This document shows, in pieces, positions 2,418 to 62,568 of a DNA stretch of 64,000 bases. The notes under the pieces are model-generated. The model had not been told where the DNA came from and ran no database searches. It saw only the letters and a program-made list of their open reading frames with translations. A program made the translations under genes and the position numbers. Origin of the DNA: Escherichia phage RB32; sequence record NC_008515.1; one strand, given 5' to 3'. Within the stretch, counting starts at the first letter, position 1. Each line of letters starts with the position of its first letter.

Positions 2418-2447
2418 ATTATACCACATCCTTGTGGTAAAGTAAAC
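2418..2447 (-). promoter_or_regulatory. sigma70-type early promoter (-35 GTTTAC, 18-bp spacer, -10 TATAAT) reading toward rIIA.1
   Basis: minus strand reads GTTTACtttaccacaaggatgtggTATAAT upstream of the 2392 start codon. Confidence 0.5.
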
Positions 2448-4291: not shown

Positions 4292-4319
4292 ATTATACTC
4301 CAATAATCATAAAGCTAAA
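4292..4319 (-). promoter_or_regulatory. putative MotA-dependent middle promoter for gene 39
   Basis: minus strand TTTAGCTTTA (MotA-box-like) + 12 bp + TATAAT, 25 bp upstream of gene 39 start. Confidence 0.4.
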
Positions 4320-4331
4320 GGCCCGAAGGCC
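4320..4331 (-). terminator. GC stem with UUCG tetraloop (GGCC-UUCG-GGCC on the transcript) just after the upstream gene stop
   Basis: plus strand ggcccgaaggcc directly 3' of the stop of ORF 4334..4603; same hairpin type recurs at many gene junctions. Confidence 0.45.
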
Positions 4332-4333
4332 TT

Positions 4334-4603
4334 TTATTTAAAACGAATAGTCGAATCCTTGAAGAATAGTCCAGAACATACTGTTCCTTCTACTTTCTGC
4401 CCAGTAGGTCCAATAGCACGAAATCCAGTATGCTGGAAATCATTTTCAGAGCAACCGAACCAATTATATCCAGTGATTTCAATATTAGTAAAACCGCTTG
4501 AAGACAAAACTTTGGTTGCATTATCAGCATCAGTACATCCTATTAAAGACACTGCTAATACTAATGCTGCAATAGAACGATTAACATATTTCATAATTTT
4601 CAC
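4334..4603 (-). CDS. putative lipoprotein (signal peptide with lipobox-like LIGC)
   Basis: 89-aa ORF, N-terminus MKIMKYVNRSIAALVLAVSLIGC. Confidence 0.6.
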   Translation of the reverse strand: MKIMKYVNRSIAALVLAVSLIGCTDADNATKVLSSSGFTNIEITGYNWFGCSENDFQHTGFRAIGPTGQKVEGTVCSGLFFKDSTIRFK

Positions 4604-5781: not shown

Positions 5782-5952
5782 TACAATTTCCTCATTAATT
5801 GAACATTGGAGCGATGCGTTTCAGAAGAGTAGCAGCACCTTTGGCGAATTTTCCATTTTATTCTCCAAGTTGTTTTCTGTATCAGTAGTTGATATTGATA
5901 TAGTACCATAATCAACTACTGATGTATATAGTTTTATGAAAAATTTTAAACT
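5782..5952 (-). promoter_or_regulatory. early-promoter-like region with conserved leader and an 11-codon mini-ORF (possible remnant of a lost gene start)
   Basis: minus strand tggTACTATatcaatatcaact...ttggagaataaaATG, as upstream of imm.1 and the 326-aa ATPase gene, but the ATG opens only MENSPKVLLLF before a stop. Confidence 0.35.
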
Positions 5953-6494: not shown

Positions 6495-6524
6495 ATTATA
6501 CTCTGGTCCCAAGAGTTTGTAAAC
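6495..6524 (-). promoter_or_regulatory. early promoter (-35 TTTACA, -10 TATAAT)
   Basis: minus strand TTTACAaactcttgggaccagagTATAAT upstream of 6450 start. Confidence 0.45.
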
Positions 6525-7068: not shown

Positions 7069-7608
7069 TTATCTCATTTCAATAAAATCTACGAGTTCGG
7101 CATAGGATTTACGGAACATTACTTGATGCCCACCAATGATAACTTGGTCATCTGGTACTTCGTATACAGCAAGATAAAATCCTTTCGAAGATAATTCTTC
7201 CCGCTCTTCTCGCGTGAACCATCTCATCATATCATACTCACTAGCGAAAGCAAAATGATAAAGAGCTATAAACCATCCTGGAATATGATATTCTACTCCA
7301 ACATAATCTTTCTTGAACTTAGTATTAATTACTATATTAGCGTTTTTAACTAATAGTTTATCTTCGTGTGGTAAAGGAATTCTTTTATTATTATCGCTAT
7401 GATGCATAAAATTAGGTCTGTCATAACCTACGTGTAATAGCCACTCTTCACTCCATGAATCTATTATACTCCTGTACGGCGTTATTTGAACACAAAGATT
7501 TCGACGTATTGTTATAGCATCTTCATAATCAAGAATACTAAACGATGATTCAACACGATAAATTTTCATTTTATTATCCTCAGTAGCTATGGTGTTATAA
7601 TACCACAA
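7069..7608 (-). CDS. hypothetical protein
   Basis: 179-aa ORF, 3-nt spacing to downstream gene, early promoter upstream. Confidence 0.55.
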   Translation of the reverse strand: MWYYNTIATEDNKMKIYRVESSFSILDYEDAITIRRNLCVQITPYRSIIDSWSEEWLLHVGYDRPNFMHHSDNNKRIPLPHEDKLLVKNANIVINTKFKKDYVGVEYHIPGWFIALYHFAFASEYDMMRWFTREEREELSSKGFYLAVYEVPDDQVIIGGHQVMFRKSYAELVDFIEMR

Positions 7609-7626
7609 CTAACCGAGGAAGTAAAT
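7597..7626 (-). promoter_or_regulatory. early promoter (-35 ATTTAC, -10 TATTAT)
   Basis: minus strand ATTTACttcctcggttagttgtggTATTAT. Confidence 0.4.
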
Positions 7627-11231: not shown

Positions 11232-11261
11232 ACTATAACATTTTTACCTTAACTTGTAAAC
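11232..11261 (-). promoter_or_regulatory. early promoter (-35 GTTTACA, 17-bp spacer, -10 TATAGT)
   Basis: minus strand GTTTACAagttaaggtaaaaatgtTATAGT upstream of 11193 start. Confidence 0.45.
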
Positions 11262-12567: not shown

Positions 12568-12597
12568 ATCATATCATTGTTAGAAAGGAAAGTAAAC
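12568..12597 (-). promoter_or_regulatory. early promoter (-35 GTTTAC, -10 TATGAT)
   Basis: minus strand GTTTACtttcctttctaacaatgaTATGAT upstream of modB. Confidence 0.45.
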
Positions 12598-13627: not shown

Positions 13628-13745
13628 TTGTTTTACCTAAAACAACAGTAGGAGCATCGTCAATGTACATTGAGTTTGGTCTATTGAACCATTCAAACAT
13701 TTTCTTCAGAACTTTCATTTGTTTTACCTAAAACAACAGTAGGAG
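13564..13745. repeat. perfect tandem duplication, 2 x 91 bp
   Basis: 13564..13654 is identical to 13655..13745 (catcgtcaatgtacattgagtttggtctattgaacc...aacagtaggag). Confidence 0.85.
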
Positions 13746-14766: not shown

Positions 14767-14796
14767 ATTATACCACACTCATTTTGACATGTAAAC
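14767..14796 (-). promoter_or_regulatory. early promoter (-35 GTTTACA, -10 TATAAT)
   Basis: minus strand GTTTACAtgtcaaaatgagtgtggTATAAT. Confidence 0.45.
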
Positions 14797-14810
14797 CATA
14801 AAATGAAAAA

Positions 14811-14830
14811 AGGAATCCCGGAGGATTCCT
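14811..14830 (-). terminator. hairpin after the soc stop (AGGAAUCC-UCCG-GGAUUCCU)
   Basis: plus strand aggaatcccggaggattcct followed by T-run on the transcript. Confidence 0.45.
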
Positions 14831-14838
14831 TAAATTAT

Positions 14839-17147: not shown

Positions 17148-17192
17148 ATTAACCTCTATTCATAAAAGCATTAAAAATTTGGTCATCAATAG
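17145..17192. repeat. 48-bp direct repeat, copy A (3' end of the 118-aa gene plus RBS/ATG of the next gene)
   Basis: catattaacctctattcataaaagcattaaaaatttggtcatcaatag; copy B at 17503..17550 differs at one position. Confidence 0.8.
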
Positions 17193-17505: not shown

Positions 17506-17550
17506 ATTAACCTTTATTCATAAAAGCATTAAAAATTTGGTCATCAATAG
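17503..17550. repeat. 48-bp direct repeat, copy B
   Basis: catattaacctttattcataaaagcattaaaaatttggtcatcaatag. Confidence 0.8.
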
Positions 17551-18127
17551 AAACATTTACTTTAGACTGTTTTTCTGATGGTAATTCATATCCACATATT
17601 ACAATTTTGTGATCAATATCAAAATACACAGAAGCAATATGATTAATGATGTTTTCAGTAAAGTCTAAATCAACATCAATATCTTTTTGACCACAGCCCA
17701 AAGGATAAATAATGCGAGTAATTCGATTATCTTTAACAAATATTCCACCGACATACTCTGTGCTGCGTTTAAAGTCTACACGCCGACGAAATGAAAAATA
17801 TTCAGGCTCTCTATGAGCTCGGCTCATAGGACACAACGAGTAACTAGAATAAGAGATGTCAAATCCTACGCCTTCGATATGAGCCAAAGTGTCATGATTA
17901 AACCAATTATAATCGTACGCCAAATCCATTAGATTATAATATGTAAAAGGCACCGGATTAACATCATTAGTCACAAGCATGTAATTAGCAACTGCTATAA
18001 TTTCATTGTTTTTAACGAATACAAACCGTGATTGATGCGAATGACCTGGACCCGCGTTTTCACGATTAATGATATAACACTGAGACTTTTTATATTTGTA
18101 AGAATCATACTTATACATTTGAAACAT
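17507..18127 (-). CDS. hypothetical protein (61.2-like position)
   Basis: 206-aa ORF ending VSIDDQIFNAFMNKG. Confidence 0.55.
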   Translation of the reverse strand: MFQMYKYDSYKYKKSQCYIINRENAGPGHSHQSRFVFVKNNEIIAVANYMLVTNDVNPVPFTYYNLMDLAYDYNWFNHDTLAHIEGVGFDISYSSYSLCPMSRAHREPEYFSFRRRVDFKRSTEYVGGIFVKDNRITRIIYPLGCGQKDIDVDLDFTENIINHIASVYFDIDHKIVICGYELPSEKQSKVNVSIDDQIFNAFMNKG

Positions 18128-18420: not shown

Positions 18421-18481
18421 GATTAATCTCCTCAGTAGTTTATGTTTATATAGTATCTCAATTTCCAATAAAAGTAAACAG

Positions 18482-18926: not shown

Positions 18927-18984
18927 AACAATCTCCTCATTTAACCAACAAGACTACTATACCATAGTCTCGTCAGCTTGTAAA

Positions 18985-23598: not shown

Positions 23599-23605
23599 TT
23601 AAACC

Positions 23606-23755
23606 TCAATTGATACATTCATATTTAAATTGTAACAGTAATAAACCCCACCCTATGATAAGAGTTGGAATCATAGCAGGAACTGTTACGCTATAGTATA
23701 TACTTATTATAACCATCAAGATTAAAAGCAATGCTGTTATAATTTTGCTTTTCAT
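23606..23755 (-). CDS. small hydrophobic peptide, below ORF-track cutoff
   Basis: 49-codon ORF read by hand (MKSKIITALLLILMVIISIYYSVTVPAMIPTLIIGWGLLLLQFKYECIN); ATGA overlap with imm stop. Confidence 0.35.
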   Translation of the reverse strand: MKSKIITALLLILMVIISIYYSVTVPAMIPTLIIGWGLLLLQFKYECIN

Positions 23756-24003
23756 TCCTTCTCTCTGATGATAATTACCTGATTTGGCTGCGCAGACTTT
23801 TTAGTTTCACCTGCAATTGACCAAATAAATGTAATAAACCAACCAATAATTGACCAGTTAAACAGTAAAGATGTGAAAAAGATTCCTACTGTCGATTTTG
23901 ACCCACGCATCAAGGCGATAAACCATGGAAGCATGTATATAATAATAGCCAACACGCCTGAAACTAAAACCATAAAAATTGAACCTGCTACTAAAGTTTC
24001 CAT
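23752..24003 (-). CDS. imm: immunity protein Imm (superinfection exclusion, inner membrane)
   Basis: 83-aa hydrophobic ORF, same length and position as T4 Imm. Confidence 0.8.
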   Translation of the reverse strand: METLVAGSIFMVLVSGVLAIIIYMLPWFIALMRGSKSTVGIFFTSLLFNWSIIGWFITFIWSIAGETKKSAQPNQVIIIREKE

Positions 24004-24010
24004 GTTTTCC

Positions 24011-24403
24011 TCACTTAGTCAAATTTTTTACACATGAATTATAAGAATTCACTACATACTCCATCGGAGCATTTTTACCTGTACGCCATTGGTAATTATT
24101 AGCCCAATTTGCCCAAAGTTCTGCGCAGTAGTTTTCAATTTTTTCTTCGCGTGTAATTACATCCGAATTACGATATGCTTGAGCAGATTCATCTGGACGA
24201 ATAGCTTCGTCAAAATTCGCCTGCATTTGTTCTACTGTTTGCTTTGAAGCTTCTTTATAACACTTGACATTAGGATTATAAAATTTGCTTGAACAGTTTA
24301 CAATTTTTCCTGCATCAGACTGATTTACTACCGGTCCTTGAGCTACACAACCAGTAAGACCTAATGCAATAACCAAAATAGCGATTTTCATTTCATTCTC
24401 CAA
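24011..24403 (-). CDS. putative lipoprotein (imm.1 position)
   Basis: 130-aa ORF, signal peptide with LTGC lipobox. Confidence 0.6.
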   Translation of the reverse strand: MENEMKIAILVIALGLTGCVAQGPVVNQSDAGKIVNCSSKFYNPNVKCYKEASKQTVEQMQANFDEAIRPDESAQAYRNSDVITREEKIENYCAELWANWANNYQWRTGKNAPMEYVVNSYNSCVKNLTK

Positions 24404-24425
24404 ATCCGTATTAGTTGATAGTTGT

Positions 24426-24455
24426 ATAGTACCATGGAAGAACAGTCTTGTAAAC
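24426..24455 (-). promoter_or_regulatory. early promoter (-35 TTTACA, 17-bp spacer, -10 TACTAT) with conserved leader
   Basis: minus strand GTTTACAagactgttcttccatggTACTATacaactatcaact...ggagaatgaaATG. Confidence 0.45.
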
Positions 24456-24542
24456 AGTTTTGTGAAAAATTTTTAGGGAATCCAAAGGGTCCAGAATCAT
24501 CTGTTTTTCATAAGTATAGATTTATATTACTTGTATGAAAAA

Positions 24543-24558
24543 GGGACCTGGAGGTCCC
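24543..24558 (-). terminator. palindromic hairpin after gene 43 stop
   Basis: gggacctggaggtccc immediately 3' of the gp43 stop on the transcript. Confidence 0.45.
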
Positions 24559-24571
24559 TAGATTTATTCTA

Positions 24572-27268
24572 TCAGCCAAACAGGAAGTCTAACGAAGCTT
24601 TTTCTTCATAGTCCATGCCAGCCGATTCACACATACCCGCAAGCGGTTTAACAAACGATTTTTGGAACAAAGTTGAGTGGTCAATCCAAGATAGTACGTC
24701 AGAACGAATTTCTTTTGGAAGTTCTGTACCCGATGGCCAAGCAATGCACTTGTCACCAAATGGATTTCCTTCACGTAATGGAAGAACCATTACTTTATTT
24801 CCATCCAAAATTGGAGCTACACCCAGACCACTAACAGCTCGACGATAAGTTAGCACACCGCGAATATGGAACGGGCATTTAAATCCTGGCCAACCTTTAT
24901 CATCATATTTCGCTATATCGTTCGCAGTTTTTACTTCAGCAATAACTTTATAGTCGAGTTGACGATATTCTTTCTCGAAGTTCTTGTAATATTCTTGGAC
25001 AGACTCTTCGCCTTCCTGAAGAATACGACGAATACTTTCTTCGAGAGCTTCTTGCACTGCTTTTGGTGTTGAACTCTGCTGAGTTTCCATACCCATAATT
25101 TTTAGATGCGGTTCAGCAAATCGTTTATCTTCCATATCATAAACGTTCAGAGCATAACGCTTTTTCGCTTTCCAAAATCCACCAACGCCCTTTGAACCAA
25201 GTGGAGGACAAGAAATAGCTTCACGGTCCATATGCATCAGATGCTCGCGGTTATTCATATAATCGCATAACTCACGATATGCAACATCAATCATAGGTTC
25301 CATCTTTTTCTTACCGAACTGATTCATAAATTCAACCAAATCGTTCTGCTCTTTGAATCGGTCAAGACCAACTTTTTCAATAACTTTATCTACACAAACA
25401 TATACCGAATCAGTATCACCTGCTGCGATGAAATCTTCATCATTAGTTCCGCATACTTTATTCAGATATTCATTAATTTTACGAGCAATCCACTGAATAC
25501 CGACTTGGCCAAAAATTGTGATAGCAGTAGCATTTCGCAAATCATAGTAACGGAAATGAATATTACCAAGAGCACCATAAAGACTGTTAATAAGAATTTT
25601 ACGGTTCAGCTGATTTGTATTAGCAAGTGTAGCAGCTTTTTCACATTCCTCAATCAGACTATTGAGAACAGATTCAGTATAATTCGACAGTTCATTTAAG
25701 AAATCATCATTGAACTTAACATATCGTTCAACTTCTGGTTTAGTTGAACAGGACCCTGCGCCTTTCATAATAATCTTTTTAATAGCTTCGGCATTCATTT
25801 CTTCAGCGAACATTTTCTTTTTCCAGTCTTTACGCTGGAAAAATACTTTAGCGATTTCCTTTGGAATGATACCTTCTTGATGCTTATCATACATCCATCC
25901 ATTCGGAGAACAAGAATATTCATCACTCGGTTTAGGAGCTGTTCCTGCGATATATTCATGAATTGGATGAACTTTAAACTGCCCACGAATAGTCTCAGGA
26001 CTAATGTTAACCTGACGAATAATGCTCGGATACAGAGACGTCAAGTCAAAACTCATAATATATCGACGAGCAATTGGTTTAGGTTCAAATACAAATGCAC
26101 CCGGAAAACTTTGTTTAACGTGTGAACCTTGTTGAGGAATAACCTTATGTTCACCTTTCAATGAGTTAAAAATAATAGCATCCCAAGTTTTAATAGGACT
26201 CATTACACCGGAAAAAGGCATTTTAGCGTAATAAGACATACTTAAAACTAGATCAATAAACCCACGAATTTTATCAATTGCTTGAACTGATTCTACGTCA
26301 ATGATGTTATAACTAATGTATCGTTGATGATTAGTCTCACGAAGTTTATTAATAGGACCGTCGTATGGTAATTTACCCTTTTTGGTTTCATGTTGAGCAA
26401 CTGATTCCAAAGAGAATGACGGCAAATTAGTAAAAGCGAATTTCTTGTACAAATCTAAATAATCAAGAATAGATACGCCATCAATAGAATAAATTTCTTT
26501 GCTACCGTACATATTTTGAATTAGTTTAGATTTTACTCGACCGATTGGAGAGAAGCGTTTCATACTACGTTCACCGAGAACCATTTTAACGCGATTCATG
26601 ATATACGGAACGTCAAATCCCTCAATATTCCAACCAGTAAAAATAGCAGGTCGTTTCTGTTCCCAGAGATTGATATATTCCATGAGCATATCACGCTCAT
26701 TATCGAATGGCATATAAATTACTCGGTCAAGAATTTCTTGAGGAACTTCATCACCACCTTCGCAGTCGAGCTTAGCAGCTAACTTTGCATCCCATTTTGA
26801 TACTGAACCGTACATTGAATTCAACAAATCAAAGACGTAAAAACGATCGTCAATTGAATCATAATGAGTGATAGCATCAATTTCATATTCTGCTTTCATT
26901 GGGTCAGGAAATTTATCACCAGTAACCTCAATGTCGCAGTTAGCTACACGAACAAATTTTCGGTCATAAACAATTTCTGAACCATATGTATCACTGATGT
27001 AAGCGAGTTTAAAATCGTTCATACCGAGAGCTTCGAGACCGATGTCTTCCATTCGCTTCATCCAGTCTCGCGCATCTTTCATTGATGGAAATTTTTGAGG
27101 AGCGCAATTTTTACCATAAATGTCTTTGTATTTTGACTCTTCCTTACAATGTCTAAACATAGTTGGAAGATATTCTACTTCGCGAGTACGTTCCTTTCCA
27201 TTTTCATCAATATAACGTTCAACAATATTATTTCCGACTGTTTCGATAGAGATATAAAATTCTTTCAT
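24572..27268 (-). CDS. 43: DNA polymerase (family B)
   Basis: 898-aa ORF, exo motif FDIE, polymerase motif GDTDS; length equals T4 gp43. Confidence 0.95.
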   Translation of the reverse strand: MKEFYISIETVGNNIVERYIDENGKERTREVEYLPTMFRHCKEESKYKDIYGKNCAPQKFPSMKDARDWMKRMEDIGLEALGMNDFKLAYISDTYGSEIVYDRKFVRVANCDIEVTGDKFPDPMKAEYEIDAITHYDSIDDRFYVFDLLNSMYGSVSKWDAKLAAKLDCEGGDEVPQEILDRVIYMPFDNERDMLMEYINLWEQKRPAIFTGWNIEGFDVPYIMNRVKMVLGERSMKRFSPIGRVKSKLIQNMYGSKEIYSIDGVSILDYLDLYKKFAFTNLPSFSLESVAQHETKKGKLPYDGPINKLRETNHQRYISYNIIDVESVQAIDKIRGFIDLVLSMSYYAKMPFSGVMSPIKTWDAIIFNSLKGEHKVIPQQGSHVKQSFPGAFVFEPKPIARRYIMSFDLTSLYPSIIRQVNISPETIRGQFKVHPIHEYIAGTAPKPSDEYSCSPNGWMYDKHQEGIIPKEIAKVFFQRKDWKKKMFAEEMNAEAIKKIIMKGAGSCSTKPEVERYVKFNDDFLNELSNYTESVLNSLIEECEKAATLANTNQLNRKILINSLYGALGNIHFRYYDLRNATAITIFGQVGIQWIARKINEYLNKVCGTNDEDFIAAGDTDSVYVCVDKVIEKVGLDRFKEQNDLVEFMNQFGKKKMEPMIDVAYRELCDYMNNREHLMHMDREAISCPPLGSKGVGGFWKAKKRYALNVYDMEDKRFAEPHLKIMGMETQQSSTPKAVQEALEESIRRILQEGEESVQEYYKNFEKEYRQLDYKVIAEVKTANDIAKYDDKGWPGFKCPFHIRGVLTYRRAVSGLGVAPILDGNKVMVLPLREGNPFGDKCIAWPSGTELPKEIRSDVLSWIDHSTLFQKSFVKPLAGMCESAGMDYEEKASLDFLFG

Positions 27269-27328
27269 AGATATTCCTTAGTTTATAGCCCGAGTTATTA
27301 GGCTCTTGATATATTATACTCCAAATAA

Positions 27329-27342
27329 GGGGCCGAAGCCCC
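27329..27342 (-). terminator. GC hairpin with UUCG loop between regA-distal ORF and gene 43
   Basis: ggggccgaagcccc. Confidence 0.4.
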
Positions 27343-27346
27343 TTGC

Positions 27347-28504: not shown

Positions 28505-29464
28505 TCACTTCCACTGCATTTCACATGCCAATTGAATGAAAAGATATGCTAAATGCAATTCAGTATTAGCTGCAATACCATGATACTGGTTATTTTCACC
28601 AACAATTTCATACATACGAATAATACTTTGCGGAGTTACGCGTGTATAGATTTCTTCGGCAAGTTTACCTACGAACCACGAATAATCAGCTGCATATTTT
28701 GGTGCTAAAGCTCTGAGCTGTTTAACATCTTTATTTTTGAGAGACTCAAGAACATCATCAATAGCACCACGATCGTTAGTAACCAGTGATAAAATACCAG
28801 CATCCAAAACACCTTTAGATGAATAACTATCGAGCTCGCCAATAGTTTTACGAAAATCAGGAAAATTCTTTTTAACCAAAGCTGCTACAACTTTCATATC
28901 AGCTATAGCAATTCCTTCACGCTTGCAGATTTCAGTCAATCGACGAATCATCTGCTTCATCATTTCAATTTTATCTTCATCGGTCGGTTGACCGAATGTA
29001 ATAACTCGGGAGCGTGACTGAAGCGGTTTAATAATACCATCAATATTGTTAGCAGTAATAATAATACTACAGTTTGAGCTATAAGCTTCCATAAAGGAAC
29101 GAAGATGTCGCTGAGACTCTGCTAACCCTGAGCGGTCAAATTCATCAATAACGATTACTTTTTGACGACCATCAAATGAAGCGGCGCTGGCAAAATTAGT
29201 CAAAGGACCACGAACGAAATCAATTTTACAATCTGATCCATTCACAAACATCATATCAGCATTTACATCATGACACAATGCTTTTGCTACAGTTGTTTTA
29301 CCTGTTCCTGGAGAAGGAGAATGAAGAATAATATGTGGAATCTTACCTTTACTTGTAATAGATTTAAAGGTTTCTTTATCAAAGGCGGGAAGAATACATT
29401 CATCGATAGTAGATGGACGATATTTCTGTTCAAGAATGTGTTCTTTTTCATTTACGGTAATCAT
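28505..29464 (-). CDS. 44: clamp loader large subunit (AAA+)
   Basis: ORF track 28505..29479; Walker [11 protein letters not shown]; start at internal Met gives 319 aa as in T4 gp44. Confidence 0.9.
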
Positions 29465-29498
29465 AATTTCCTCATTCAAGTTTTAGTGTAAATTATAA

Positions 29499-29512
29499 AG
29501 GGCCGAAGCCCT
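29499..29512 (-). terminator. GC hairpin with UUCG loop between genes 45 and 44
   Basis: agggccgaagccct. Confidence 0.4.
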
Positions 29513-29515
29513 TTA

Positions 29516-30202
29516 TTAAAAATCGTGGGTAGAATCAGCTTCAAGAGCTACCACATAATTCGCGTGTTCACCTTCAAATTTAGCAGCACCTTGTTTACCT
29601 TTTGCCCAGAGCAGAAGTTTATAATTTCCTGGTTGCATTTTCATATTTGCCATATTGATAATGAAATTAAATGTATTTTCACCATCATAATCACCAAGAG
29701 TCAAAGAATATTTAACACGGGTCAGAGCAGAATCTTCTACTTTATTAAAACCGTTAATTACGATTTTACCTTCTTTTACCGTGATAGCAATTGTATCAAT
29801 TTGCAGACCACGAGATACACGCAACAGTTGTTGAAGGTCTTCAGCTTTAATTTCAGTAACAACAGATGCTACCGGGAATGGAATTGGTTTATTAGGAGCA
29901 ACTACTGTACTCGGATCGGCTGCTGGCCAAAAAATTGTTGAGCGAGCATCAGCAATTTTAATATTACCATCTTCTGACTGGGAAATTTCTGCATCATCAT
30001 TAACTAGAGACAGAATACCGAGAAAACCGTTCAAATCGTAAATTGCTACATCAAAATCAATAACGTCAGAAATATTTGCTTCCGCATAAGTTGTACCATT
30101 AACTGCGCGAGTCATAATAAATTGACCGGATTTAAGCATAATACCAGAGTTAATAGTAGCGAAATTTTTAAGCAGAGCAGTAGTATCTTTAGACAGTTTC
30201 AT
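29516..30202 (-). CDS. 45: sliding clamp
   Basis: 228-aa ORF; length and position as T4 gp45. Confidence 0.9.
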   Translation of the reverse strand: MKLSKDTTALLKNFATINSGIMLKSGQFIMTRAVNGTTYAEANISDVIDFDVAIYDLNGFLGILSLVNDDAEISQSEDGNIKIADARSTIFWPAADPSTVVAPNKPIPFPVASVVTEIKAEDLQQLLRVSRGLQIDTIAITVKEGKIVINGFNKVEDSALTRVKYSLTLGDYDGENTFNFIINMANMKMQPGNYKLLLWAKGKQGAAKFEGEHANYVVALEADSTHDF

Positions 30203-30257: not shown

Positions 30258-30647
30258 TTAACGATTAAAATCAGCCGCAATTGTTTCGGCAACAATTTGA
30301 GCAGCAACAATCAGACGTTCATCTGCATTGCCGCAATAATCATCTTCAAGGCGTTCATGACCATGTGCCATAAGAACCTTAGCACCGGCGTTTAGGGATT
30401 CTGTAGTATGTTTGCGCATTAGTTCAATCCATTTATTACTTACTTCACGATCGATAGCTTCATAATACGCATGACGAGCAGGTGCAGATTTAATTTTGTT
30501 CTGAATAACTTCCATTGCGTTATCAGAAAGAGACAAAACCCATGCGCGACGAATTTTATTTTGGTTTTGTGGATTTGATTCAGAACGCACGTGTTTTGGC
30601 TGAATATCTTTTACATCAACAGTATAATTCACAGTAATTTTAGTCAT
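30258..30647 (-). CDS. rpbA: RNA polymerase-binding protein RpbA
   Basis: 129-aa ORF at the 45.1 position; length equals T4 RpbA. Confidence 0.75.
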
Positions 30648-34897: not shown

Positions 34898-34923
34898 TAT
34901 ATCAAACTCCGTATAAAGCTAAA
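34896..34923 (-). promoter_or_regulatory. putative MotA-dependent middle promoter
   Basis: minus strand TTTAGCTTTA + 12 bp + TATAAT, same architecture as upstream of gene 39. Confidence 0.4.
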
Positions 34924-34935
34924 GGGCCGAAGCCC
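34924..34935 (-). terminator. GC hairpin with UUCG loop after a-gt stop
   Basis: gggccgaagccc directly after the stop codon. Confidence 0.45.
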
Positions 34936-34936
34936 T

Positions 34937-36139
34937 TTATTTTGTAATAATGTCAAATTGCTCTTTAAAGCAGAAGCTTGAATCTTGATGCTGATACAAA
35001 AATTCATATGCTTTTTCTCGCTCACGGTCATAAAGAGCTCGGTCAGATGACAGTTCTTTAATACGCTCGAATGTTGATTCCATGTCATTTTCATCAAACC
35101 AAATGATACCGCTATCATGCGAGGTCAAAGGAGTATTATCAACACGGAATTTCAAATTATCACCCGTTGATTTCCAGAAAACAGGAATTGTACCGCAAGC
35201 ACCAAGCTCGAGATGAGTATATTCTAAAGAACGTTGTAGATATTTTTTGTCCAACTTACTCAACTGATAACCAAATCCGGATTTACTCATGCGTTCAAGC
35301 ATTTCGCTATTTACATAACGGTCAAGAATTTGCGTTGGCAAATTAGGAGCAATTTTAATTTGGTCTACTTGATGAAGACGATAATACTCGTATGGAATTC
35401 CTTTTTCTTTAATAGGAATGAACGCTGGAGAACGTTCCAGACCTTCCATAATAGTACTTAGTCCTGCAGGTTTAAGATGTTTTTCATGAAAATCAAACAT
35501 CTGATAAAAACCTTTCCATGTAGTCGTACGACCAATCCAACGGTTGATATTCATGTTAATTTCAGAAACATCTTTCCAGTAGGTTGATCTAACCTTCGCA
35601 ATATCCATAGGAGGCTGAAAGTTATATACTGTCGGCGCTTCTTCAATATCATCAAACAAAGAAACTGTTTCAGGATACCATTCTTTCATCAGAACTTTAT
35701 TAAAATCGCCATTATCAGAATGACTAAAAATAACATCAGCTCGACGAACAGTTTCTTCTAATCCCAAATTTCGACGCAAAGAAAGAGAAGAATGGTCATG
35801 TTGATAAACTACAACACGAACCGAAGGTTTAATGTTATCAATAATTTTTTTATAGTTATTAATTGTGTCTTCTTCAACTGAAGTAGCAGGAACTGAATTG
35901 ATAATTAGAATATCACAATCATTTACCAGCTTAAGCGTTTTATCGTATTCTTTTGCCAATAAAACCGGAATTGAAAATGATTTATAATCATGCGCACAGT
36001 TACGAGTAAATGATTTATCTTTAGCATAAACCAAAGTTACTTCATGACCATTTTTAATAAACCAATCACGCTGCTCAAGAGAAAATTTAGTTACACCGCA
36101 ACCTTCAAGACCTCGAGCCATAAAAATACATACTTTCAT
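34937..36139 (-). CDS. a-gt: DNA alpha-glucosyltransferase
   Basis: 400-aa ORF; same length as T4 alpha-gt and in the expected position upstream of gene 47. Confidence 0.85.
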   Translation of the reverse strand: MKVCIFMARGLEGCGVTKFSLEQRDWFIKNGHEVTLVYAKDKSFTRNCAHDYKSFSIPVLLAKEYDKTLKLVNDCDILIINSVPATSVEEDTINNYKKIIDNIKPSVRVVVYQHDHSSLSLRRNLGLEETVRRADVIFSHSDNGDFNKVLMKEWYPETVSLFDDIEEAPTVYNFQPPMDIAKVRSTYWKDVSEINMNINRWIGRTTTWKGFYQMFDFHEKHLKPAGLSTIMEGLERSPAFIPIKEKGIPYEYYRLHQVDQIKIAPNLPTQILDRYVNSEMLERMSKSGFGYQLSKLDKKYLQRSLEYTHLELGACGTIPVFWKSTGDNLKFRVDNTPLTSHDSGIIWFDENDMESTFERIKELSSDRALYDREREKAYEFLYQHQDSSFCFKEQFDIITK

Positions 36140-36192
36140 TTAATATCCTCATTGTTTTGGTTTATTTTACCAAAAATTTATAAAGCAATATA

Positions 36193-36206
36193 GGAGCCGA
36201 AGCTCC
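36193..36206 (-). terminator. GC hairpin with UUCG loop
   Basis: ggagccgaagctcc. Confidence 0.4.
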
Positions 36207-36379
36207 TATCCGCATAATACGCCATACAAAGGCTCGTTAGAGCTTCTAAATTTTATACGCTTATATGTTATAGTTCCTTCTGCTTTAGCTTTATCATGAG
36301 ACTCTTTAAAGCGTCTCATCATTTCTACTTTAGAGGAACGAATTTTATTATAATCTATTTCAGAAGTCTGGGTGTTCAT
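36206..36379 (-). CDS. small hypothetical protein, below ORF-track cutoff
   Basis: 58-codon ORF read by hand (MNTQTSEIDYNKIRSSKVEMMRRFKESHDKAKAEGTITYKRIKFRSSNEPLYGVLCG). Confidence 0.3.
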   Translation of the reverse strand: MNTQTSEIDYNKIRSSKVEMMRRFKESHDKAKAEGTITYKRIKFRSSNEPLYGVLCG

Positions 36380-38260: not shown

Positions 38261-38301
38261 ACATTATCCTCAATTACGTTAAAAATTTTATTATCCAAAA
38301 A

Positions 38302-38313
38302 GGGCCGAAGCCC
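38302..38313 (-). terminator. intrinsic terminator (GGGC-UUCG-GCCC followed by U5)
   Basis: gggccgaagccc directly after stop codon, followed by TTTTTGG on the transcript. Confidence 0.5.
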
Positions 38314-38514
38314 TTAGCTAAACTTTTTGGCACCCTTCCAGCCTTCATACATCATTGCGGCTGATATTAATATTGCTCCTGAGCAACTTGAATATTTGTG
38401 ATTCCAAAACCAGTTTAGAAAAACTTCATCATCAATACCTTGGGCTATCATATTTTCAAAGAACTGACGACGAGCTTCGGCAATTCGCTGCGATAATTTA
38501 GATTCAGGATTCAT
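38314..38514 (-). CDS. hypothetical protein
   Basis: 66-aa ORF. Confidence 0.5.
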   Translation of the reverse strand: MNPESKLSQRIAEARRQFFENMIAQGIDDEVFLNWFWNHKYSSCSGAILISAAMMYEGWKGAKKFS

Positions 38515-39122: not shown

Positions 39123-39152
39123 ATCAATTCCTCAAAGGCAATTCATGTGTTA

Positions 39153-39182
39153 ATAATACCGCAGTTTGAGCTCGTTGTAAAC
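39153..39182 (-). promoter_or_regulatory. early promoter (-35 GTTTACA, -10 TATTAT)
   Basis: minus strand GTTTACAacgagctcaaactgcggTATTAT. Confidence 0.45.
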
Positions 39183-39263
39183 AACTTTGCGAAAATTATT
39201 TTAGGGAATGATAAGAAAGGAACGATAGCTTAGAATGGTAATATACAGAATGTGAGAAAGAAA

Positions 39264-39277
39264 GGCCCAGAGGGCCC
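39264..39277 (-). terminator. hairpin after nrdH stop
   Basis: ggcccagagggccc. Confidence 0.4.
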
Positions 39278-46736: not shown

Positions 46737-46766
46737 ATTATACCACATCCTTGTGGCAAAGTAAAC
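46737..46766 (-). promoter_or_regulatory. early promoter (-35 GTTTAC, 18-bp spacer, -10 TATAAT)
   Basis: minus strand GTTTACtttgccacaaggatgtggTATAAT, near-identical to the promoter at 2418..2447. Confidence 0.5.
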
Positions 46767-49157: not shown

Positions 49158-49685
49158 TTATGCGAGTACCGTCTTTAACCGTTCTTCAAACTTCCGAAGA
49201 GTATTCTGGCGTTCAGCTCTTTGCTTTTTGTAAGTTTCAATACGCTCTGAAATGAGAGTGTATCGTTCATTTACTGATTCTTTCATAAAATCAGGAATTT
49301 CACGAGAAGCTTTAATCTCATCAAATTTATCAATAACAACTTGCTCTTCAGCAATTAAGTTATCATACATTAAAATATCTTTCTTGATGAACTCAATATC
49401 TTCTTGAGTTACACGAGATAATTTAGATGCTTTATCCTTTTTGTACTGTTCATTAGTATCACGAGACCAGTGTAATGTACGATTTTTATTCGTATTCTTG
49501 TAAATTTCTACAATACCAATCTCATCGATAATAACGATCCAATTCCAACGGGATTTGTAAATTTGTCCTCCATCAACCGTGATTTCACCTCCAATTGAGA
49601 TGTCATTAAAGAACTTGCTTTGTGCTTCAGATTTAAATTTACCATCGTTGTAATTTACCAGGTTGAAAATATCTTTAGCGTTCAT
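49158..49685 (-). CDS. hypothetical protein
   Basis: 175-aa ORF, first gene after early promoter 49714..49743. Confidence 0.55.
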   Translation of the reverse strand: MNAKDIFNLVNYNDGKFKSEAQSKFFNDISIGGEITVDGGQIYKSRWNWIVIIDEIGIVEIYKNTNKNRTLHWSRDTNEQYKKDKASKLSRVTQEDIEFIKKDILMYDNLIAEEQVVIDKFDEIKASREIPDFMKESVNERYTLISERIETYKKQRAERQNTLRKFEERLKTVLA

Positions 49686-49713
49686 TTTGTGTTCCTCCGT
49701 AGTTGATAGTTGT

Positions 49714-49743
49714 ATAGTACCACAGAGGAACAGTCTTGTAAAC
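49714..49743 (-). promoter_or_regulatory. early promoter (-35 TTTACA, -10 TACTAT) with conserved leader
   Basis: minus strand GTTTACAagactgttcctctgtggTACTATacaactatcaact. Confidence 0.45.
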
Positions 49744-49745
49744 CA

Positions 49746-50048
49746 CTAAAAGAAACTTCTTTTACAATTTTTTCCACTGAACCATGCGCTCACTGCTTTC
49801 TTAGTCTCAGGAGCAGTGTTATCCATAAACCATTCAAAGGCAGCCTTTTTATGATTCTGGAGGGCTTCTCGGGCTTTAATCTGCTCACGGTCTATTAACA
49901 CTAACATATGAGCCTTTCTTGTCACCAAGGGCTTCTTATGATTTTTTGAATACTCCCAATCATTTGTCCATCGCATCGTTGTTGCGAATTGAAGTACAGC
50001 TTCTTTAATTTTAGTTTCGTAAATTTCACGAGCCTTTGAGTATAACAT
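49746..50048 (-). CDS. hypothetical protein
   Basis: ORF track 49746..50060; GGAGG 5 nt upstream favours the Met at 50048 (MLYSKAREIY...). Confidence 0.5.
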   Translation of the reverse strand: MLYSKAREIYETKIKEAVLQFATTMRWTNDWEYSKNHKKPLVTRKAHMLVLIDREQIKAREALQNHKKAAFEWFMDNTAPETKKAVSAWFSGKNCKRSFF

Positions 50049-50850: not shown

Positions 50851-51827
50851 TTTAATAATACCGTTTCAGCGATTTCTTCCCAACCGTTTTTGTCGGTCAT
50901 AATAAAGTCAGCAAGATAAAGAGCAGTACGCAGTGAAACATTGCGTAAACGATTAACATTGACTTTCATCCATGATAATGCTTTATAAGTTTCTTCATCA
51001 GAAAGACCGCGCTTTTGCATCATGTCGGTTGAAAGAATAACATCTTCAACCCTGACCATAATTTCTTCATTAGTGTGAACACCCAAATCCAAATAAACCG
51101 AGCGGGACACTAATGCTTGTAAATGTGGAGCAAGTTTAGTACCACGGTCTAATTCGCGGTCAATGTCAACGTTTGTGATAAAAACAATCGTTCCTTTAAA
51201 TTCAAACTCACGCTCAATGCCTTTTTCTTCTAAGTAAGAAGATGCAGTGCTCCAGCAGACTTTACGGGTCTCTCCAGTGTCCAGAGCAGCTTTCAGAAGA
51301 TTAAGAATGTCCATATCAGAGAAAACATCCACATCATCAATCAAAAGGACAGAATTCTCTTCACGATTATTCCAAAGCTGCTCATAAAGACCAATACCAG
51401 AGATTTTACCATTAATGCTTTTATATTCAATGTATCCAATATCATTTGCTTTATTTAAAGCTTTATCTAAAGAATATGTTTTACCTATACCTGCCGCACC
51501 AGAGATAATTAATGAACGAATGTTTCCGTTAATAATACCATTCGTCATCATTCCCATAACATTAAATCTTTTATTAATGCGGGTTTTCATATCTTCATAT
51601 GATTCTTTAACTTCTTCAACTTTTACACCATCATATGAAATGTCTGATTTGTAAACCCAAACACCGCGACGCTTACCGTCAATTTCAACAAAAACTTTAC
51701 CATCTCCTTGTGCATCTACCGGAGCATTATCTGGGAACCATTCACCTAAGAGCTCAAAAGTTCCAGAGATTTCTTTACCAAAGTAGATACCCTTATTGAT
51801 AGTTACAGTTTTCATTTTATTCTCCAA
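50847..51827 (-). CDS. P-loop ATPase (AAA-like)
   Basis: 326-aa ORF; Walker A GAAGIGKT, Walker B LLIDDVD; ATGA overlap with the GIY-YIG gene. Confidence 0.65.
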   Translation of the reverse strand: MENKMKTVTINKGIYFGKEISGTFELLGEWFPDNAPVDAQGDGKVFVEIDGKRRGVWVYKSDISYDGVKVEEVKESYEDMKTRINKRFNVMGMMTNGIINGNIRSLIISGAAGIGKTYSLDKALNKANDIGYIEYKSINGKISGIGLYEQLWNNREENSVLLIDDVDVFSDMDILNLLKAALDTGETRKVCWSTASSYLEEKGIEREFEFKGTIVFITNVDIDRELDRGTKLAPHLQALVSRSVYLDLGVHTNEEIMVRVEDVILSTDMMQKRGLSDEETYKALSWMKVNVNRLRNVSLRTALYLADFIMTDKNGWEEIAETVLLK

Positions 51828-51849
51828 ATCCGTATCAGTTGATAGTTGT

Positions 51850-51879
51850 ATAGTACCATAAAGCTTTATGCTTGTAAAC
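51850..51879 (-). promoter_or_regulatory. early promoter (-35 TTTACA, -10 TACTAT) with conserved leader
   Basis: minus strand GTTTACAagcataaagctttatggTACTATacaactatcaactgatacggatttggagaataaaATG. Confidence 0.45.
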
Positions 51880-51909
51880 CGTTTTGTGAAAAATTTTTGA
51901 AATAAAAAA

Positions 51910-51927
51910 GGGAGCCCGAAGGCTCCC
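51910..51927 (-). terminator. intrinsic terminator (GGGAGCC-UUCG-GGCUCCC followed by U-run)
   Basis: gggagcccgaaggctccc after the stop of the 337-aa gene; T-run follows on transcript. Confidence 0.5.
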
Positions 51928-51929
51928 TA

Positions 51930-54624: not shown

Positions 54625-54654
54625 ACTATACCATAACCTTGCCAACTTGTAAAC
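54625..54654 (-). promoter_or_regulatory. early promoter (-35 GTTTACA, -10 TATAGT)
   Basis: minus strand GTTTACAagttggcaaggttatggTATAGT. Confidence 0.45.
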
Positions 54655-55436: not shown

Positions 55437-55466
55437 ATAGTATCACAGCTCAAATGGAAAGTAAAC
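55437..55466 (-). promoter_or_regulatory. early promoter (-35 GTTTAC, -10 TACTAT)
   Basis: minus strand GTTTACtttccatttgagctgtgaTACTAT. Confidence 0.45.
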
Positions 55467-55481
55467 CGTTTAAATGAAAAA

Positions 55482-55499
55482 AGTCTCCCGAAGGAGACT
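55482..55499 (-). terminator. intrinsic terminator hairpin after the rI.-1 stop
   Basis: agtctcccgaaggagact followed by T-run on transcript. Confidence 0.45.
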
Positions 55500-59825: not shown

Positions 59826-59855
59826 ATTATACCACAGTCAAGAGGAAAAGTAAAC
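59826..59855 (-). promoter_or_regulatory. early promoter (-35 GTTTAC, 18-bp spacer, -10 TATAAT)
   Basis: minus strand GTTTACttttcctcttgactgtggTATAAT upstream of regB. Confidence 0.5.
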
Positions 59856-62538: not shown

Positions 62539-62568
62539 ATACTATCACAATTCTAGAAGAAAGTAAAC
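62539..62568 (-). promoter_or_regulatory. early promoter (-35 GTTTAC, -10 TAGTAT)
   Basis: minus strand GTTTACtttcttctagaattgtgaTAGTAT upstream of the IP gene. Confidence 0.4.

Follow-up and report, generated by a model that had tools for sequence, protein, structure and literature searches.

The spacer between the DNA polymerase gene 43 and imm.1 of Escherichia phage RB32 (NC_008515.1) occupies positions 24404-24571, minus strand, of the 64,000-nucleotide stretch analysed here, which we call the window. It places a hairpin, a promoter and a leader between one stop codon and the next start codon, and it raises the question of what such a composite is and why parts of it recur before unrelated genes. 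Our analysis indicates that these modules very probably mark, in the usual manner of a T4-like phage, where one early transcription unit gives way to the next, and that they are of the type published for T4-type phages as PeSL (promoter-early stem-loop) cassettes (Arbiol et al. 2010, PMC2839356; Comeau et al. 2014, PMC4122927). PeSLs are composite terminator, early-promoter and Shine-Dalgarno (SD) elements, with promoters of the form TTTACW-N17-TAYWAT in the T4/PST pair (PMC2839356, PMC4122927). A preliminary description of the same DNA had arrived at this reading from the letters alone; the reading is correct, the phenomenon is already described, and the case illustrates that a tool-free reader can recognise the regulatory signals that punctuate the early region of a T4-type phage.

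The gene 43-imm.1 spacer and the early promoters of the window

The early genes of the window lie on the minus strand, and the window is the same as RB33 (KM607001.1, Tequatrovirus) except for one 119-bp repeat unit and one mismatch. In the spacer, read 5' to 3', a predicted intrinsic terminator is followed by a T4 early promoter, then by 34 nt of leader and the ribosome-binding site GGAG (Table 1). The terminator hairpin folds with -12 kcal/mol (z -3.22) and runs into five U residues (24542-24538), the first of which is also the closing base of the stem. Downstream of it, the -35 and -10 elements stand 17 nt apart and fit the PeSL promoter form as TTTACA-N17-TACTAT, with transcription predicted to start at the A at 24419. 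The leader is close to unfolded in its own transcript (dG -0.3 kcal/mol, z +0.84), and GGAGAAUGAAA at its end overlaps the A of the imm.1 ATG (24391-24389). The starts named in the preliminary description, 24403 here and 51827 at nrdC.10, are TTG-extended ORF starts, the true ATG codons being at 24391 and 51815. Long-range pairing of the UP region with the SD was considered for the imm.1 spacer and dropped: the minimum free energy fold yielded only an 8-bp A-U/G-U helix closing a loop of ~80 nt, and the segment from the -35 to the ATG is no stabler than shuffles (z +1.18). An Rfam scan of the whole window returned zero family matches at the gathering threshold.

Table 1. Features of the gene 43-imm.1 spacer and of related junctions in the window
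Feature	Position	Strand	Details
Stop codon TGA of gene 43	24574-24572	minus	
Predicted intrinsic terminator	hairpin 24559-24542	minus	stem AGGGACC, loop UCCA, stem GGUCCCU
A/T-rich UP-like region	24456..24480	minus	ctaaaaatttttcacaaaact; common to other early promoters
-35 element	24455-24449	minus	GTTTACA
Extended -10	24434-24426	minus	TGG + TACTAT
34-nt leader	24392..24425	minus	ACAACUAUCAACUAAUACGGAUUUGGAGAAUGAA; predicted unstructured
Shine-Dalgarno GGAG	24401-24398	minus	within GGAGAAUGAAA (24401-24391)
nrdC.11/nrdC.10 module	51813..51928	minus	UUCG terminator 51928-51909, GTTTAC 51879-51874, TACTAT 51855-51850
nrdC.10 module, 3' part		minus	same leader as imm.1; exact RegB/S1 consensus GGAGAAUAAAA 51825-51815; ATG 51815
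nrdC.9/nrdC.8 module	49683..49746	minus	-10 as at imm.1, then GGAGG SD
motB/cef module	5821..5950	minus	UP region, TATACA -35, TACTAT 5905-5900, leader variant
motB/cef module, 3' part		minus	GGAGAAUAAAA 5866-5856, then 11-codon remnant ORF 5856-5821
rI.-1/mobD.5	55437..55499	minus	UUCG terminator 55499-55482 and early promoter
soc/mrh.2	14767..14831	minus	UCCG terminator 14831-14810 and early promoter
nrdH/55.6	39153..39277	minus	hairpin 39277-39263, early promoter 39181-39153
e/ipIV early promoter	62539..62567	minus	
vs.3/regB early promoter	59826..59854	minus	within dyad pairing spacer with SD
mobD.2a/mobD.2 early promoter	54625..54653	minus	-10 TATAGT; 15-bp dyad centred on -10
nrdC.5/nrdC.4 early promoter	46737..46765	minus	
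41/dmd early promoter	18956..18984	minus	-10 TATAGT; dyad centred on -10
61.4/sp early promoter	18450..18478	minus	
modA.2/modB early promoter	12568..12596	minus	
modA/srd early promoter	11232..11260	minus	-10 TATAGT
dexA/hyp012 early promoter	7597..7625	minus	within dyad pairing spacer with SD
hyp010/motB early promoter	6495..6523	minus	
39/rIIA.1 early promoter	2418..2446	minus	
UUCG hairpin	4317..4334	minus	no U-tract; MotA box and -10 directly after; homologue of T4 P39
UUCG hairpin upstream of gene 43	27327..27344	minus	no U-tract; homologue of T4 P43
UUCG hairpin at 45/44	29495..29516	minus	no U-tract, no mapped promoter
UUCG hairpin then MotA box	34920..34939	minus	homologue of T4 P47
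UUCG hairpin then TGCTTTA MotA box	36190..36209	minus	homologue of T4 PmobB/Pa-gt.1
UUCG hairpin + U5 at 55.3/55.2	38300..38315	minus	no promoter behind

We propose that polymerase leaving gene 43 would be stopped at the intrinsic terminator and that, about 60 nt on, a very strong sigma-70 early promoter, combining the UP-like A/T tract with GTTTACA, TGn and TACTAT, would initiate a second RNA. The leader of this RNA, CA-rich, short and predicted to be unstructured, would end in a GGAG SD inside an 11-nt sequence for the phage nuclease RegB acting with ribosomal protein S1. With a strong promoter and a RegB/S1 site in one unit, the first gene would therefore be expressed hard right after infection and its mRNA then inactivated.

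The motif GTTTAC-N17/18-TA[TC][AT]AT has 13 minus-strand matches in the window and 0 on the plus strand, versus 0.06 +/- 0.24 in 200 dinucleotide shuffles, and the T4/PST form TTTACW-N17-TAYWAT gives 14 minus-strand and 0 plus-strand matches versus 0.14 in shuffles. Looser matches to the promoter motif fall in non-coding DNA, which makes up 5% of the window, in 13 cases out of 17. Eighteen early promoters were curated in the window. The UP region, -35, TGn and -10 are all present together on the early-gene strand, as in T4 early promoters, the upstream consensus A.A.AA.TTTT.A.AAA.TTG precedes TTTAC, and a GGAG or GGAU SD lies 25-45 nt past the -10 in 14 of the 18 modules. The nrdC.4 and rIIA.1 promoters share 97% identity over 32 nt (repeat family D1). 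The RefSeq and GenBank records of T4 carry no annotated promoter features.

Promoter-like hexamers might simply have been over-read in intergenic DNA of A+T-rich composition, and a generic TTGACA/TATAAT scan indeed stays at shuffle level, with 39 sites versus 40.1 +/- 6.1 and no excess; having shown no enrichment, this generic sigma-70 scan is uninformative for DNA so rich in A+T. The artefact is refuted by the T4 motif (13 and 0 matches versus 0.06), by a 19-mer leader query (TACTATACAACTATCAACT) that found 4 window matches at <=3 mismatches versus 0.09 expected, and by hairpin z-scores of -2 to -4.5 across the window. As the elements are moreover kept at orthologous sites in T4 and T2, we give a compositional origin practically no credence.

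Hairpins upstream of and across the early promoters

Eleven stop-proximal GC hairpins were found in the window, and in eight of them a UUCG loop is closed by C-G. Stop codon, GC hairpin and early promoter follow one another at 43/imm.1, nrdC.11/nrdC.10, rI.-1/mobD.5, soc/mrh.2 and nrdH/55.6; the repeated layout noted in the preliminary description is thus present, at five junctions rather than the dozen it had counted. The remaining 13 early promoters directly abut the preceding stop codon without an upstream hairpin, and five further hairpins, all with UUCG loops, stand before MotA-box middle promoters or have no mapped promoter. A G+C-rich hairpin followed by a U-tract, the mark of an intrinsic terminator, is present at 24559, 51928, 55499 and 14831, whereas the hairpins at 4334, 27344, 29516, 34939 and 36209 have no U-tract, and four of these five precede middle promoters.

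As a separate observation, the breakpoint of the hyp048 insertion lies 6 nt from the hairpin at 27327..27344.

Ten more early promoters lie inside a dyad spanning the -10 (z<-2), so that a stem-loop adjoins or overlaps the promoter in 15 of 18 cases (five upstream hairpins and ten promoter-spanning dyads). In the nrdC.8 module the dyad measures 12 bp and pairs the spacer with the SD. Transcripts beginning at their own early promoter are predicted to be unstructured (mean z +0.40). Folding places the 5' arm of the hairpin at regB, nrdC.8 and hyp012 upstream of the predicted local start, and therefore only read-through RNA would hide the SD at these three genes. General occlusion of the SD by the spacer at all early promoters was rejected, there being only three strong cases; cognate and non-cognate spacer-SD pairing differed at p=0.04, but the SDs are too alike for a clean test.

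A wider rule might be drawn from this arrangement, by which early promoters in T4-type phages would carry either a true terminator upstream or a dyad over the -10 and start ("either/or insulation"), such that RNA reading through from upstream would either terminate or fold, in some cases masking the SD, and RNA from the promoter itself would be unstructured. This rule and a protein-binding role for the 5' half of the leader (below), both of which go further than what has been published, make up a single joint proposal that we consider unlikely.

The leader family and its RegB/S1 match

The sharing of a leader by three sites, as set out in the preliminary description, is real, and a fourth copy at 49686-49719 (nrdC.9/nrdC.8) had been overlooked. 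The copies at imm.1 and nrdC.10 share 96% identity across 51 nt, and the nrdC.8 module is like imm.1 at 15 of 18 spacer bases and has the same first 14 leader bases. The copy at 5905 had been called a remnant; its leader is intact, and the term fits instead the gene that follows, an ORF of 11 codons here that is full-length in T2 and NIC06P2. Individual copies are mosaic: that of imm.1 combines an UP region and leader of nrdC.10 type with a spacer of nrdC.8 type, and at the gene 43 junction T2 has a promoter and leader of nrdC.8 type. Modules of promoter, leader and hairpin form the largest direct-repeat families in the window (D1-D3, D5, D6, D8). Across 545 Tequatrovirus records, leader matches occur at about 7 places per genome; T4 and RB33 carry copies at shared loci, others precede e.8, motA and a denB-proximal gene, and at least 10 unrelated first genes lie behind the leader. 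An exact-match scan of IMG/VR returned 25 stretches from about 10 contigs, three being chance coding matches in unrelated phages.

The 3' 11 nt of the leader equal the published RegB/S1 consensus GGAGAAUAAAA, the target being a single-stranded GGAGRAYARAA in the intergenic part of an early transcript (PMC1702504). The sites of nrdC.10 and of the cef-proximal remnant ORF match it exactly (Table 1), and the imm.1 site (24401-24391) agrees with GGAGRAYARAA at 10 of 11 positions. The window's best consensus matches fall on the SDs of genes that come first after an early promoter, and the leaders that carry them are predicted to be unpaired, in keeping with a single-stranded intergenic site. Of this family, nrdC.8 is reported to be moderately cleaved by RegB (PMC1702504). 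To judge by their sequence, the imm.1 and nrdC.10 sites are predicted RegB/S1 targets coinciding with the SD, and what the preliminary description offered as a translational operator would be better put as this known cleavage site.

If the leader were the operator of a translational repressor, for instance RegA, its location would suit, because it overlaps the start codon and the ribosome-binding site, as RegA sites do. By inspection, however, GGAGAAUGAAAUGAAAAUC is without the poly(A)-UU..AUG character of the SELEX consensus aaAAUUGUUAUGUAA or of known sites, RegA sites being poorly defined, and the RegB/S1 match accounts better for the conserved bases. RegA targets are also mostly middle-mode replication genes, and an operator of this kind appears very improbable.

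A stronger case can be made that selection has kept the leader as a functional RNA, a RegB/S1 site together with an unstructured S1-binding translation enhancer, and that recombination is incidental; we see this as a substantial possibility that stops just short of probable. The consensus equalled by the 3' end was derived experimentally and finds its top matches in SDs behind early promoters, the leaders are predicted to be single-stranded, which RegB requires, and ACA motifs are reported as S1 ligands. The copies are also old, because T4, T2 and RB33 have them at shared loci. Nonetheless, identity extends to positions without a known role, namely the -35/-10 spacer shared by imm.1 and nrdC.8 and the 5' half of the leader. 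Past the -10 there is little conservation among the 14 early promoters that do not belong to the family, and whole promoter-leader types swap loci between phages. Selection on the RNA and our interpretation of the modules as PeSL-type boundaries are compatible rather than exclusive.

The second part of the unlikely joint proposal concerns the CA-rich 5' half of the leader (ACAACUAUCAACU..GAUAC), which may be an RNA element to which a protein binds specifically, such as one that enhances both translation and RegB cleavage in an S1-dependent way. If this were true, the leader family would be a portable 5' adaptor giving a captured gene "burst then shut-off" early expression.

Gene exchange at the junctions and comparison with known systems

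Junctions were compared in four genomes, T4, T2, BCH953P4 and NIC06P2, with U115 and IMG-VR loci included at 43/imm.1, and different genes were found inserted at them. At 43/imm.1 there are two alternative inserted genes, one in T2 and one in U115, NIC06P2 and the IMG-VR loci, both beginning at the ATG behind the leader; the downstream bound of the indel is only 8-14 nt of identity (..ATGAAAAT), without a second module. The nrdC.11/nrdC.10 junction has four architectures among the compared genomes, and the inserts of T2, BCH953P4 and NIC06P2 are each flanked by two early-promoter modules. The module of the window joins the hairpin of the upstream T2 module to the promoter and leader of the downstream one, with the crossover inside the shared 'ttttatttcaaaaatttttcacaaa' tract. 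T2 has a deletion from the motB promoter to the hyp012 promoter, and one in BCH953P4 extends from the nrdC.4 promoter to a degenerate copy. At e/ipIV the internal-protein (IP) gene is replaced in T4 and IP genes are inserted in BCH953P4 and NIC06P2, the variants keeping a common promoter, leader and N-terminal coding segment. This gain, loss and replacement of genes at named junctions, together with the match to the published composite elements, upholds the identification as PeSLs.

A promoter-plus-leader unit of roughly 95 nt is scattered as a small repeat family before unrelated genes. No dispersed patches of homology in the early region are longer than these units, and the general homologous recombination of the phage would therefore use them as crossovers, alongside ordinary gene junctions; small genes would be gained, lost or swapped between modules or just behind them, as in the published PeSL model. 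A dedicated, integron-like site-specific system that excises and integrates cassettes as mini-circles would also explain why the nrdC.11/nrdC.10 inserts lie between two modules, and mini-circles were found by inverse PCR in RB49/phi1 (PMC2839356). Such a system is quite improbable, however, given that the crossovers are scattered over the T-tract/UP region (T2), the leader after 'caactatcaa' (NIC06P2, locus L024), the ATG at imm.1 and a point 31 nt into ipIV. There is no conserved core site, stems and loops vary among modules, the region has no known or annotated recombinase, and short homology suffices for T4 recombination (PMC2839356).

While the breakpoints that the preliminary description wished to see mapped do fall inside modules of relatives, they show no significant excess per junction: 7 of 18 early-promoter junctions are polymorphic versus 38 of 110 others (p=0.79, four genomes). 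Counted as events, 10 of 43 lie at early-promoter junctions versus 14% expected (p=0.07, four genomes), and in the comparison with T4 alone an early module is touched at only 1 of 20 listed junctions. Homing endonuclease genes are involved in about ten differences and account for about as many as the modules do. Module junctions are, as a caution, not demonstrably hotter than other gene junctions in the four-genome comparison. The preliminary description had seen junction duplications as fitting the PeSL mechanism; those found here, the repeats flanking hyp034 and hyp080 and a 91-nt tandem, were rejected as products of module recombination, as they are coding or junction duplications away from promoters.

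The underlying biology is textbook or published, comprising T4 early promoters, UUCG hairpins, RegB sites and PeSL-mediated shuffling. The analysis contributes an annotated map of the window, with 18 early promoters, 11 stop-proximal hairpins, 4 leader copies and RegB-type sites, and modest additions: a clean four-architecture case at nrdC.11/nrdC.10, evidence for the movement of whole promoter-leader types between loci, and the caution given above on breakpoint rates.

Compared with PeSLs, the window modules show no essential difference. Both have an A/T-rich tract, a sigma-70-type promoter, a stem-loop and an SD with start codon, are intergenic, provide ~100 nt of dispersed homology and adjoin indels or replacements, with inserts flanked by two elements and a single chimeric element elsewhere. 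An upstream stem-loop with U-tract is present at only 5 of the 18 window early promoters, and the stem-loop over the -10 seen at ten of them is described for RB49/phi1 and not stressed for T4/PST. T4 early promoters (Hinton 2010, PMC2988021) share the A/T-rich UP region, GTTTAC -35, TGn, TAnnAT -10 and prereplicative genes downstream. One subfamily in the window adds a common transcribed leader of about 34-40 nt, which the other 14 promoters do not share. Tuerk and colleagues reportedly described C(UUCG)G tetraloop hairpins in T4 intercistronic regions in 1988; the hairpin behind gene 43 differs from these in its UCCA loop. The e/ipIV junction, with IP genes replaced or inserted behind a common promoter and leader, echoes the shuffling described for the IP locus in T-even phages (Repoila et al. 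1994, as cited in PMC4122927); homology at e/ipIV runs about 30 nt into the coding sequence, whereas at imm.1 and nrdC.10 it ends at or just past the ATG. SD-occluding hairpins with an internal promoter occur at T4 e, soc, 49 and I-TevI, with late promoters (PMC3014915), and folding suggests that regB, nrdC.8 and hyp012 may resemble them, but with early promoters. Finally, the RegB/S1 sites of T4 early mRNAs (Durand et al. 2006, PMC1702504) have a GGAG SD with an A-rich tail, as do those of the window, the imm.1 site differing from the consensus at position 8, which is G rather than A.

Early promoters and a shared leader

Megablast placed 23600-25200 at 100% identity to Enterobacteria phage RB33 (KM607001.1, Tequatrovirus), with ~500 further T4-like genomes matching at 90-99%, and alignment of the whole window to KM607001.1 revealed 1 mismatch and the absence of one 119-bp repeat unit (~7287-7408, hyp011/hyp012 region) that is present in the deposited RB33 record. 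As the sequences are otherwise identical, the RB33 annotation is transferable to the window, although the reading frame of hyp012 differs between the two because of the missing unit. The genes, running from rIIA to e.4, are those of the classic early/middle block of T4, with a coding share of 95% and all genes except three on the minus strand.

The early-promoter motif that a preliminary description of this DNA had placed at gene boundaries proved to be real. GTTTAC-N17/18-TA[TC][AT]AT has 13 matches on the minus strand of the window and none on the plus strand, against 0.06 +/- 0.24 in 200 dinucleotide-preserving shuffles; for the published T4/PST form, TTTACW-N17-TAYWAT, the numbers are 14 and 0, respectively, against 0.14. 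A looser motif had 13 of its 17 matches in non-coding sequence, which makes up 5% of the window. Curation, which also admitted TATAGT/TAGTAT -10 boxes and one TATACA -35, yielded 18 early promoters, each of them intergenic and pointing toward the next gene. As a scan of the window with the generic E. coli consensus promoter showed no enrichment, only the phage-specific motif is informative. An extra early-promoter-like sequence (GTTAAC..TGGTATAAT; 62648-62679) is embedded in the 3' end of e (lysozyme), upstream of the e to ipIV promoter, and the nrdC.4 to nrdC.3 spacer (45655-45706) resembles a degenerate nrdC.5 to nrdC.4 promoter (tttaaagccaaggatggctcggagTATAAA). The annotated plus-strand ORF 55.7 (39147-39233), which overlies the minus-strand nrdH to 55.6 early-promoter module, is probably not a gene.

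The flagged interval, 24404-24571, is the spacer between gene 43 and imm.1, and its anatomy was read directly on the minus strand (see table); the start originally placed at 24403 is that of a TTG-extended ORF, the annotated imm.1 start being the ATG. The shared leader is genuine and larger than first described. Copies of TACTATACAACTATCAACT, for which the chance expectation in the window is 0.09, include one at 49.7 kb (nrdC.9/nrdC.8) that was omitted from the initial list of three, and the copies at imm.1 and nrdC.10 show 96% identity across 51 nt and have the UP region in common. At 5905 the supposed remnant is an intact leader; what has been truncated is the gene behind it, reduced here to an 11-codon ORF but complete in T2 (T2_009) and NIC06P2. 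In other parts of RB33 the promoter-leader unit stands ahead of e.8, motA, and an ORF close to denB, and incomplete copies occur at frd.3 and ndd.4/5; T4 carries leader copies at orthologous sites. A 92-nt query found 3760 places in 545 records (~7 per genome), nearly all from Tequatrovirus-type phages of enterobacteria. As sequence past the -10 is little conserved among the 14 early promoters that do not belong to this subfamily, long leader identity is a subfamily trait and not a general promoter property. A possible, predicted function for the 5' half of the leader might go beyond the literature.

Features of the gene 43 to imm.1 spacer, leader copies, and UUCG hairpins lacking a U-tract
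Feature	Position	Strand	Remark
Gene 43 (DNA polymerase) stop TGA	24574-24572	minus	
Hairpin AGGGACC-UCCA-GGUCCCU	24559-24542	minus	folds at -12 kcal/mol, z -3.2
Five-U run	24542-24538	minus	first U closes stem
~60-nt spacer, then A/T-rich tract		minus	between hairpin and GTTTACA
GTTTACA	24455-24449	minus	followed by 17-nt spacer
TGG-TACTAT	24434-24426	minus	
34-nt leader		minus	between TACTAT and imm.1 start
GGAG	24401-24398	minus	
imm.1 ATG	24391	minus	
TACTATACAACTATCAACT, exact	24413-24431		
TACTATACAACTATCAACT, exact	49701-49719		
TACTATACAACTATCAACT, exact	51837-51855		
TACTATACAACTATCAACT, 3 mismatches	5887-5905		
UUCG hairpin	4317-4334		before MotA-box middle promoter
UUCG hairpin	27327-27344		before MotA-box middle promoter
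UUCG hairpin	29495-29516		
UUCG hairpin	34920-34939		before MotA-box middle promoter
UUCG hairpin	36190-36209		before MotA-box middle promoter

Stop-proximal hairpins and promoter-spanning dyads

The transcribed strand of the window carries 11 stop-proximal G+C hairpins, all of which fold as drawn and eight of which have a UUCG loop, a hairpin type reportedly described by Tuerk et al. in 1988. The layout of stop codon, hairpin, and early promoter, previously claimed for at least a dozen junctions, exists, but at five: 43/imm.1, nrdC.11/nrdC.10, rI.-1/mobD.5, soc/mrh.2, and nrdH/55.6. A clean U-tract is present in four of these five hairpins, the tail at nrdH/55.6 being UUUCUUUCU. Four hairpins without a U-tract adjoin a MotA box and -10 and are homologous by position to P39, P43, P47, and PmobB, which are mapped middle promoters of T4; the 45/44 hairpin, also without a U-tract, has no mapped promoter behind it, and the 55.3/55.2 hairpin has nothing behind it. 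These arrangements suggest that U-less UUCG hairpins act in stabilization or processing, whereas U-tract hairpins before early promoters are true terminators.

The remaining 13 early promoters begin a few bases from the upstream stop codon. Of these 13, 10 are enclosed by a dyad that covers both the -10 and the start site, and no such dyad is present at the five terminator-preceded promoters (Fisher p=0.0065), with the same but weaker direction in the rest of RB33 (combined 20/29 vs 1/8, p=0.012). Predicted folding of the -35-to-ATG RNA of the 10 dyads gave z < -2 (lowest -6.2), and RNA starting at the local promoter start is predicted to be unstructured (mean z +0.40). At regB, nrdC.8, and hyp012 (59826-59857, 49686-49746, and 7570-7632), the 5' arm of the dyad, located in the promoter spacer, pairs with the Shine-Dalgarno sequence (SD), so that the ribosome-binding site would be hidden solely in read-through RNA. 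If placement is flexible, as in the definition of the promoter-early stem-loops (PeSLs) of RB49 and phi1, a stem-loop accompanies 15 of the 18 early promoters. The predicted either/or pattern of upstream terminator and promoter-spanning dyad might extend beyond what has been published.

Gene exchange at the module junctions

Mosaicism and breakpoints could be observed directly at several junctions. In the imm.1 copy the UP region and leader are of nrdC.10 type and the spacer is of nrdC.8 type; the gene 43 junction has an nrdC.8-type promoter and leader in T2 and an e.8-type spacer in U115 and at locus L020. In IMG/VR loci and reference genomes taken together, at least 10 unrelated first genes lie behind the same leader. 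Inserts behind it at 43/imm.1 are T2_046 in T2 and an MKIVMGCL... gene shared by U115, NIC06P2, and several IMG/VR genomes; behind the insert, imm.1 follows a short GAGGAAATTATT ribosome-binding site, and identity at the downstream boundary of the indel is only 8-14 nt. The nrdC.11/nrdC.10 junction has four architectures, namely a single module (window, T4), a 161-aa gene (T2), a 66-aa gene (BCH953P4), and two genes (NIC06P2), and every insert has an early-promoter module on both sides. In the single module of the window, the hairpin is that of T2's upstream module and the promoter and leader are those of its downstream one, with the crossover in shared T-tract/UP sequence, a configuration matching the PeSL model, in which two-module brackets are reduced to one chimeric module (PMC2839356, PMC4122927). 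The T2 161-aa gene (T2 loci L033/L034, at 51800-52285 there), absent from the window and T4, is annotated as ADP-ribosylase-like and is flanked on either side by a terminator and promoter of its own. The 1-kb block that separates the motB promoter from that of hyp012 is also missing in T2, the deleted gene in BCH953P4 is nrdC.4, bounded by its own promoter and the degenerate copy, and internal-protein genes are replaced and inserted at e/ipIV.

Gene exchange at the named junctions bears out part of the proposal that the modules are recombination sites, but no significant breakpoint excess over other junctions emerges. Among T4, T2, BCH953P4, and NIC06P2, 7/18 early-promoter junctions and 38/110 others are structurally polymorphic (p=0.79), and ~10/43 independent events fall at module junctions vs 14% expected (p=0.07). 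Against T4 alone, only 1 of 20 listed junctions touches an early module. Homing endonuclease genes are carried by ~10 of the differences. The modules (1865 nt, 3% of the window) are clearly over-used relative to sequence length, but this null is unfair because viable indels must end between genes. Module junctions are not demonstrably special.

The preliminary description had also regarded junction duplications as fitting module recombination; the hyp034 and hyp080 cassettes are instead flanked by duplicated coding ends unrelated to promoters. The hyp034 repeats (49 nt, 98% identical; 17145-17193 and 17503-17551) mark a cassette-type insertion away from promoters, T4 having one copy and no gene. 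Those of hyp080 (51 nt, 45/51; 42714-42764 and 42927-42977) duplicate the 3' coding end of pin, of which T4, T2, BCH953P4, and NIC06P2 have a single copy and no hyp080. A perfect 91-nt tandem duplication (13564-13654 and 13655-13745) lies at the srh/hyp025/mrh junction, where overlaps of ~95 nt in the T4 and T2 alignments suggest copy-number differences. A 42-nt, 90% identical pair (30352-30393 and 62177-62218) lies inside the apparently unrelated rpbA and ipIV, and rIIA and gene 44 (2145-2190 and 29431-29476) have in common, at 83% identity, a ribosome-binding region (AATGAGGAAATTATG) and their first ~11 codons.

A probable RegB/S1 target and relation to known systems

In T4, mapped RegB cuts define an 11-nt RegB/S1 target, GGAGAAUAAAA (general form GGAGRAYARAA), a single-stranded site located in the intergenic stretches of early transcripts; nrdC.8 is moderately cleaved (Durand et al. 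2006; PMC1702504). The exact 11-mer is found at the nrdC.10 SD (51825-51815) and at the remnant ORF before cef (5866-5856), the imm.1 counterpart being GGAGAAUGAAA, and among all SDs the top consensus matches belong to first genes behind early promoters. As the 3' end of the leader matches this consensus, the suggested shared translational operator would most simply be the RegB/S1 site already described; by inspection, the leader is a poor fit for a RegA operator.

The best-supported account, drawn from published work on T4, RB49, and phi1, is a sequence of events in which upstream transcription would be terminated, or the read-through RNA folded, before a very strong early promoter fires from the putative start site and the unstructured leader, with its GGAG SD, supports a burst of translation that cleavage of the SD by RegB with S1 would end. 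Small genes may be moved in and out by general homologous recombination between promoter-leader units, candidates for this role because no other dispersed homologies in the early region are as long, together with microhomology at the ATG. All of these components have already been described, including T4 early promoters (PMC2988021) and PeSLs, the latter for the T4/PST pair and the nrdC region (PMC2839356, PMC4122927), and the finding correctly identifies biology that was already known.
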